Assembly (NCBI RefSeq): GCF_003334405.1
Contig: NZ_QOWM01000057.1
DNA length: 676 bases
From: Escherichia coli
GTDB taxonomy: Bacteria; Pseudomonadota; Gammaproteobacteria; Enterobacterales; Enterobacteriaceae
Reading direction: 5' to 3' (one strand)
Shown: piece by piece, positions 1-676 of the stretch
Layout of the letters: each line of letters starts with the position of its first letter
Numbering within the stretch: the first letter of the stretch is position 1
Notes under the pieces: model-generated
Seen by the model: only the letters and a program-made list of their open reading frames with translations
What the model was told of the DNA's origin: nothing
Databases searched by the model: none
Made by a program: the position numbers and the translations under genes

Positions 1-676
1 GTAAGTCACTGTGTGGATTATCATAACGGTAGCGGGTGATATCGCCGTCAGGGGCAGTTTCCTGAATCAGACGGCCCCATTCATCATATTCCCGGCGTAT
101 TTCCAGCCCGTCAGGCCCGGTGGCTGACGTTAACTGGCTGTGGTGGTTATAGTAAAACGCCGATGCCCTGCCATCCGGCGTGGTGATGCGCGTGATGAGG
201 CCCGTCACCACATCCGGACTGTATTCTGTTGTCCTGCCTGCGGCATCCGTCTGTGCCCTGAGCCTGCCCACCGCGTCAAACTGACTCTGCGTGACGCTGC
301 CGTCCGCGTGTTCCTTTTTCACCACCCGCTTCAGCCCGCCTTCACCCTGCGTGTGCAGGACTTCACGGCGGTTCAGGCTGTCGGTGATGGTGATGCGGTC
401 CTTCTCATACTGATACGTGTAACTTAAGCCTGCCGGGTTTAGCTGTTCTGTCACCCGCCCGTCGCTGTCGTAACGGTAACAGATTTCCGGTCGGCCCGTG
501 TGACGGTGCGCCACCATCCGGCCCCGGTATTTATCATCGTAAGTAAAGCTGCGCACCTGTGTATTGCTGCGGTCATACACCGCCGCCAGTTCGCCGCGGG
601 GCGTCCAGCCATAGCGCACCAGCGGCGCGGCAGGTAAATTCTCCGGGTATTCCGGGTCGTGCGTCAGCCACACGGC
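1..676 (-). CDS. rhs: Rhs-family YD-repeat protein, internal core fragment (partial at both ends; gene continues beyond both window edges)
   Basis: Hand translation of the reverse complement in the frame with codons at 676-674 ... 4-2 gives 225 codons with no stop: AVWLTHDPEYPENLPAAPLVRYGWTPRGELAAVYDRSNTQVRSFTYDDKYRGRMVAHRHTGRPEICYRYDSDGRVTEQLNPAGLSYTYQYEKDRITITDSLNRREVLHTQGEGGLKRVVKKEHADGSVTQSQFDAVGRLRAQTDAAGRTTEYSPDVVTGLITRITTPDGRASAFYYNHHSQLTSATGPDGLEIRREYDEWGRLIQETAPDGDITRYRYDNPHSDL. It contains repeated YD / YDxxGRL-type motifs (VYDRS, FTYDDKYRGRM, YRYDSDGRV, FDAVGRL, EYDEWGRL, YRYDNPHS), the hallmark of Rhs/YD-repeat cores. I recognise the sequence from memory as closely resembling the E. 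coli Rhs core, but I cannot tell which paralog (rhsA/B/C/D or other) from this fragment, so the symbol is the generic family name. No start or stop codon is present in the window, and position 1 belongs to the next codon downstream. Confidence 0.9.

Follow-up and report, generated by a model that had tools for sequence, protein, structure and literature searches.

The window, as the whole 676-nt stretch of DNA analysed here is called, is antisense to an rhs core open reading frame along its entire 676 bases. Frame 0 of the minus strand reads through the window without a stop (225 codons), and the plus strand carries stops in all three frames of the six-frame translation. A megablast search of 5426 complete E. 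coli genomes matched the window to nucleotides 877-1552 of the 4194-nt K-12 rhsC gene with 100% identity over 676 bases. Several unrelated strains besides K-12 also carry it at 100% over its full length. The positions of the coding segment, its repeats and the tracts that distinguish it from the other K-12 paralogs are listed in Table 1.

Table 1. Features located in the window, counted from its first base
Feature	Position	Strand	Evidence or remark
Internal rhs core CDS fragment, without start or stop	2-676	-	K-12 rhsC nt 877-1551, RhsC residues 293-517
YD (RHS) repeat, protein residues 69-100	377-472	-	PF05593, i-E 5.7e-06
YD (RHS) repeat, protein residues 117-149	230-328	-	PF05593, i-E 9.4e-04
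YD (RHS) repeat, protein residues 133-170	167-280	-	PF05593, i-E 1.8e-07
YD (RHS) repeat, protein residues 158-190	107-205	-	PF05593, i-E 2.2e-05
YD (RHS) repeat, protein residues 197-219, only model positions 1-23 of 38	20-88	-	PF05593, i-E 3.7e-06
Span of the 24 sites separating the window allele from K-12 rhsA/rhsB	78-599		Local comparison
Dense patch, 6 substitutions in 9 bases vs K-12 rhsA/rhsB, Asn-Thr to Gly-Lys	561-569		Local comparison
Exact 77-bp stretch in common with K-12 rhsA/rhsB, one of the two longest in the window	1-77		Local comparison
Second exact 77-bp stretch in common with K-12 rhsA/rhsB	600-676		Extends outside the window to a 229-bp run, gene nt 725-953

The window translation lies in the YD-repeat shell of RhsC and over its full length matches NF041261 (NCBIfam RHS element core protein, equivalog; 443.7 bits, E 1.5e-132), where it covers 301-525 of 1261 model positions. 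The whole K-12 RhsC protein belongs to this family, scoring 2683.5 bits against a curated cut-off of 2000 bits, which applies to whole proteins and is out of reach for the window fragment by itself. The translation also contains five significant units of PF05593 (Pfam RHS_repeat, YD; i-E <=1e-3), which place it among the YD/RHS repeats, and scores 67.6 bits with TIGR01643 (cut-off 15.8). In K-12 RhsC, TIGR03696 matches residues 1170-1247 at the boundary between core and tip, and the core ends at about residue 1247. The window is pure core, as a preliminary description of this DNA had proposed, because it lies far from that boundary. Its G+C content is 59.9%. The window is assigned with high confidence to an internal segment of the G+C-rich conserved core of an E. 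coli clade I (RhsA-B-C-F) rhs gene, in the allele of K-12 rhsC; this confidence is joint with the explanation by recombination between loci that is developed below.

At the protein level, the window encodes some five YD repeats. They belong to the beta-sheet shell in which the C-terminal toxin of an Rhs polymorphic toxin is enclosed. The matching YD-repeat shell region is found in T6SS Rhs effector shells of known structure (E 1.7e-36 to 3e-21), which are distant homologues from other genera. The nearest solved relative is Tse5 (8cp6, E 1.7e-36), and the others are Tre23 (7pq5), Pseudomonas protegens RhsA (7q97) and the Salmonella bongori Rhs core (8qjd). The hallmarks of T6SS PAAR-Rhs effectors are an N-terminal PAAR domain, dependence on VgrG and the T6SS, and a C-terminal toxin with a cognate immunity protein, all of which lie outside the window. 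K-12 RhsC has the N-terminal sequence MSGKPAARQGD..., and ybfB lies downstream of its gene.

The window contains few other features. No Rfam family matched either strand at the gathering thresholds, a Chi site is absent from the window, and no terminator was found in it, the counts being no different from those of shuffled sequence. A single weak promoter-like match, at 124-153 on the antisense strand, is within the shuffle expectation (mean counts in shuffled sequence are 0.3 for promoters and 0.6 for terminators). Internal repeats are trivial, comprising a 19-nt pair at 79% identity and a 15-nt inverted pair. Plus-strand open reading frames of up to 95 aa (140-427) were rejected as chance, being antisense to a fully open, strongly matching frame in 60% G+C DNA. 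The promoter-like match fits a sigma-70-like consensus at 9 of 12 positions and stands just upstream of this 95-codon frame, an arrangement that is itself most likely due to chance in a G+C-rich antisense strand.

Comparison with the K-12 paralogs and copy number in E. coli

The window was compared locally with all five rhs loci of K-12 (rhsA, rhsB, rhsC, rhsD and rhsE). The rhsC gene (b0700; RhsA-B-C-F subfamily, clade I of Jackson et al. 2009) is 100% identical and shares the sequence, the frame and the YD repeats. The rhsA and rhsB cores, which equal each other over this segment, are colinear with the window and align without gaps at 96.45% identity, each with 24 mismatches that cause 9 amino-acid changes. 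The rhsD gene, of the RhsD-E subfamily, has a homologous, alignable core, but its gapped alignment reaches only 74.5% identity, a divergence too great for confusion in mapping or for efficient recombination. In the rhsE remnant the corresponding part of the core is missing, and it gave no match in the local comparison. The window is thereby placed in the RhsA-B-C-F core subfamily; core nucleotide divergence is a few percent within a subfamily and about 20% or more between subfamilies, according to Wang et al. 1998 as cited in PMC2935791. K-12 accordingly holds three copies at >=96% identity, namely rhsA, rhsB and rhsC.

The sites at which the window differs from K-12 rhsA and rhsB are 78, 98, 100, 138, 185, 218, 224, 272, 339, 344, 359, 373, 401, 422, 481, 491, 561, 563-566, 569, 582 and 599. 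The patch that begins at site 561 is far denser than the rest of the window, suggesting that several nucleotides changed in one event or that a short tract has another ancestry. No exact substring of at least 100 nt is common to the window and K-12 rhsA or rhsB, the longest being 77 bp. Given the 24 mismatches and the lack of a shared run of that length, the window is therefore uniquely placeable in K-12.

When whole cores are compared, rhsA and rhsB of K-12 agree exactly over runs of 1811 and 1214 bp with a single mismatch between them, which bears out the earlier claim that rhs cores are nearly identical over several kilobases. The longest exact run of rhsC with either gene is 341 bp over the whole core. 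All rhs genes of K-12 have the same chromosomal orientation; rhsA and rhsB are 144 kb apart in direct orientation, and rhsC is megabases away from both. The near-identical direct repeats of rhsA and rhsB are the substrate of the classical glyS duplication, and rhs elements were named after this recA-dependent unequal crossover (PMC2935791; also PMC3150448, PMC1636419). The preliminary description called such cores substrates for RecA-dependent rearrangements. The unequal crossover between rhsA and rhsB supports this in part, but the rearrangement itself rests on laboratory selection, since rhs-mediated chromosomal rearrangements had not been reported from nature (Jackson et al. 2009, PMC2935791).

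Of the 5426 complete E. coli genomes, 3885 gave megablast matches, at 12129 places altogether (median 3 and maximum 7 per genome), and the earlier description of the window as multi-copy sequence holds. All but two of these places, which are on plasmids, are chromosomal. Records at >=99% identity number 590, and most genomes carry relatives at 95-99%.

Two shorter sub-queries served to estimate the situation across the population. A 121-nt sub-query built to share no 28-mer with K-12 rhsA or rhsB was found, among the matches listed, at one place in each K-12 record and at three places in several wild strains. A strict 300-nt diagnostic sub-query, for which at most 3 mismatches were allowed, found 730 places in 613 carrier genomes (median 1, maximum 3). 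In 60 evenly sampled carriers, 8 (~13%) had 2-3 places at >=99% identity. K-12 laboratory derivatives dominate the carriers, and the proportion is therefore probably larger in wild strains. In most carriers of the window allele, the segment is effectively unique, with a median of one place at >=99%.

A rival reading is that the window is effectively a single-copy rhsC sequence, uniquely placeable, to which the worry about multiple copies does not apply. The single place per K-12 record and the median of one place per carrier genome agree with it, as do the K-12-type genomes, where exactly one 100% copy is found and the paralogs, with 24 differences in 676 sites, share no read of >=100 nt with it. 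The carriers with two or three places speak against it. In addition, K-12 454 assemblies still broke at rhsC: contig breaks common to these assemblies are attributed to all five rhs genes, rhsA to rhsE, among other causes, and one false polymorphism was traced to mis-assembly of an rhs element in the same data (Lyons et al., PMC3045373). The assembly hazard pointed out in the preliminary description is thus documented.

Dependence of placement on the strain

Five genomes were examined locus by locus. By position, rhsC is the rhs gene that lies between ybfA/kdp (kdpFABC) and ybgA. In K-12, 300709, AR_0085 and 99-3165, the 100% copy adjoins ybfA; the window itself comes without flanking sequence. 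In addition to its 100% rhsC copy, AR_0085 contains an rhsB copy with only 3 mismatches, and 99-3165 likewise contains a 100% rhsC copy and an rhsA copy with 3 mismatches. The closed genome of CFSAN061761, in which the rhsC and rhsB loci were found by synteny, carries 100% copies at two loci. One is at the rhsA locus, adjoining yibF/selA, and the other is at the rhsC locus, adjoining ybfA. The two genes form an exact direct repeat of 2795 bp (gene nt 220-3014), with the copies 3.3 Mb apart. The copy at the rhsB locus of this strain has 3 mismatches to the window.

The effect on read placement was expressed as the share of ambiguous reads, meaning those taken from the window that recur unchanged in another paralog of that genome. 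In K-12, 0% of 150-nt reads are ambiguous, and the same applies to every read of at least 100 nt. In both AR_0085 and 99-3165, 55% of 150-nt reads are ambiguous. In CFSAN061761, the share is 100% at all read lengths.

The window alone fixes no locus, because the identical 676 bases are present at the rhsA and rhsC loci of CFSAN061761; depending on the strain, it has no duplicate, a near duplicate or an exact one. Identity with K-12 rhsC does not fix the chromosomal position either, as the rhsA locus of CFSAN061761 carries the same bases. The exact second copy in that strain, together with the second loci at only 3 mismatches in AR_0085 and 99-3165, makes the single-copy reading doubtful as a general account, and a segment shared among dispersed loci is preferred.

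Across strains, the earlier warning against assigning the paralog from the window alone stands, in view of the two loci of CFSAN061761; for K-12, where the sequence is diagnostic of rhsC, it is overstated. Unique mapping, which the preliminary description named as the observation that would speak against it, is seen at the exact-match level in K-12-type genomes (one 100% copy, the next at 24 mismatches), and most exactly matching genomes are of this type. Unique mapping is not seen in CFSAN061761. Overall, that description is essentially right and overstated for K-12-type genomes, it applies in full to other strains, which have these bases at two or three loci, and its content is already known biology.

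Mosaic cores and probable exchange between rhs loci

The relation among the loci was resolved at 93 informative core sites, defined as those where K-12 rhsA and rhsB agree and both differ from rhsC. Eight further genes from four strains were scored at these sites, and all eight are block-wise mosaics of rhsA-type and rhsC-type sequence. The rhsA-locus gene of CFSAN061761, for example, starts with 5 rhsA-type sites, continues with 71 consecutive rhsC-type sites and ends with rhsA-type states at 16 of the last 17 sites. The breakpoints vary by locus and strain, and the first ~220 nt stay locus-specific. In runs tests on the mosaics, z values were -6.3 to -8.5; clustering of this degree did not arise in any of 100000 permutations. 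The rhsB gene of AR_0085 and the rhsA gene of 99-3165, from independent assemblies, have the same arrangement of mosaic blocks, with only 3 differences in 3600 core sites. Judged from these sequence patterns, the mosaic blocks point to gene-conversion tracts between dispersed paralogs.

The identity of paralogs in some "complete" genomes could instead be an artefact of assembly or polishing, in which short reads are recruited across paralogs, and not a product of gene conversion. Rhs genes are a documented source of mis-assembly and false variants (PMC3045373), but the near-identical mosaics of AR_0085 and 99-3165 come from independent strains. The tract boundaries are also sharp, and each gene keeps the 5' and 3' ends specific to its locus. 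Furthermore, K-12 rhsA and rhsB are identical over ~3.1 kb bar one mismatch in hundreds of independent assemblies. An artefact is very unlikely on these grounds, and gene conversion is the favoured source of the shared tracts.

A different origin for the mosaics would be allelic replacement at the same locus only, by imported DNA, with no transfer between loci within a genome. E. coli recombines often with imported DNA, which counts in favour of this origin. Clade I rhs sequences also cluster by chromosomal position, and recombination of cores between loci was judged "infrequent (if any)" (Jackson et al. 2009, PMC2935791). Against it, the identical allele is present at three different loci, and therefore at least one transfer between loci must have taken place somewhere in the history of the lineage. 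Moreover, the rhsA-locus and rhsC-locus cores of CFSAN061761 are identical over 2795 bp while their ends differ. Replacement at the same locus alone is therefore improbable as the full explanation, and transfer between loci remains the preferred one.

A further exchange appears within a single locus. In strain 300709, the rhsC core carries, by fusion, the tip of the ybfO orphan that lies downstream (L006:4353-8552). Nucleotides 2695-4200 of the fused gene correspond to nucleotides 16-1521 of the K-12 ybfO orphan with 99.7% identity. Neither the native rhsC tip nor ybfB is present, and the next gene after the fusion is ybfC. The arrangement looks like a crossover between core and orphan within one locus that swapped the toxin tip. 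The same type of event was described for orphan Rhs toxins of Salmonella (PMC3967940). With multiple near-identical copies, mosaic blocks and the 300709 fusion, the window belongs to the dispersed repeats that act as recombination substrates.

These observations can be combined in a single scheme. The window DNA is one copy of a dispersed repeat of ~3.7 kb in the same orientation, with copies typically at rhsA (yibF side), rhsB (nikR side) and rhsC (ybfA/kdp side). The copies can pair because they are 96-100% identical, and homologous recombination, presumably RecA-dependent, would follow between them. Crossovers would produce duplications or deletions, such as the classical 140-kb duplication between rhsA and rhsB. 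Recombination between a core and a downstream orphan fragment would cost the gene its toxin tip. Gene conversion without crossover would copy core tracts from locus to locus. A crossover duplication may be tolerable between rhsA and rhsB at their distance of 144 kb, and with rhsC megabases off perhaps only non-crossover events are viable. The result is that no given core segment, the window among them, belongs to one fixed locus, and for the same reason short-read assemblies break or mix at rhs genes. In this scheme the RecA dependence of the conversion tracts and the direction of transfer are presumed, and the deposited assemblies are taken to be correct.

A literature search found no dedicated study of concerted evolution or gene conversion of rhs. 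The mosaics of this small sample indicate that exchange between rhs loci does occur, which would modestly qualify the judgement of Jackson et al. The chances are perhaps even that tracts are exchanged among rhsA, rhsB and rhsC cores so commonly in natural E. coli that rhs "orthologs" assigned by position are often non-orthologous along their cores.

The practical value of these results lies in the care to be taken with variant calls, with the paralog names "rhsA", "rhsB" and "rhsC", and with short-read assemblies in rhs cores. The care needed varies by strain, being negligible for reads of at least 100 nt in K-12 and total in strains like CFSAN061761. The mosaics also caution against assuming orthology over the whole length of rhs genes that share a chromosomal position. 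The understanding of Rhs toxins is unchanged, and the value is practical, not conceptual.

Rhs genes are often inactivated in these genomes (L007:3564-4726; L011:3804-4501; L009:4359-8552). The rhsA-locus gene of CFSAN061761 has its tip split off by an IS3 element, rhsC of 99-3165 is truncated by an IS1 element, and the annotation of AR_0085 gives its rhsC an internal stop. In CFSAN061761, a gene annotated as tssD (type VI tube protein, Hcp; L014:46701-47879) adjoins yrhA and lies ~35 kb from the rhsB locus.
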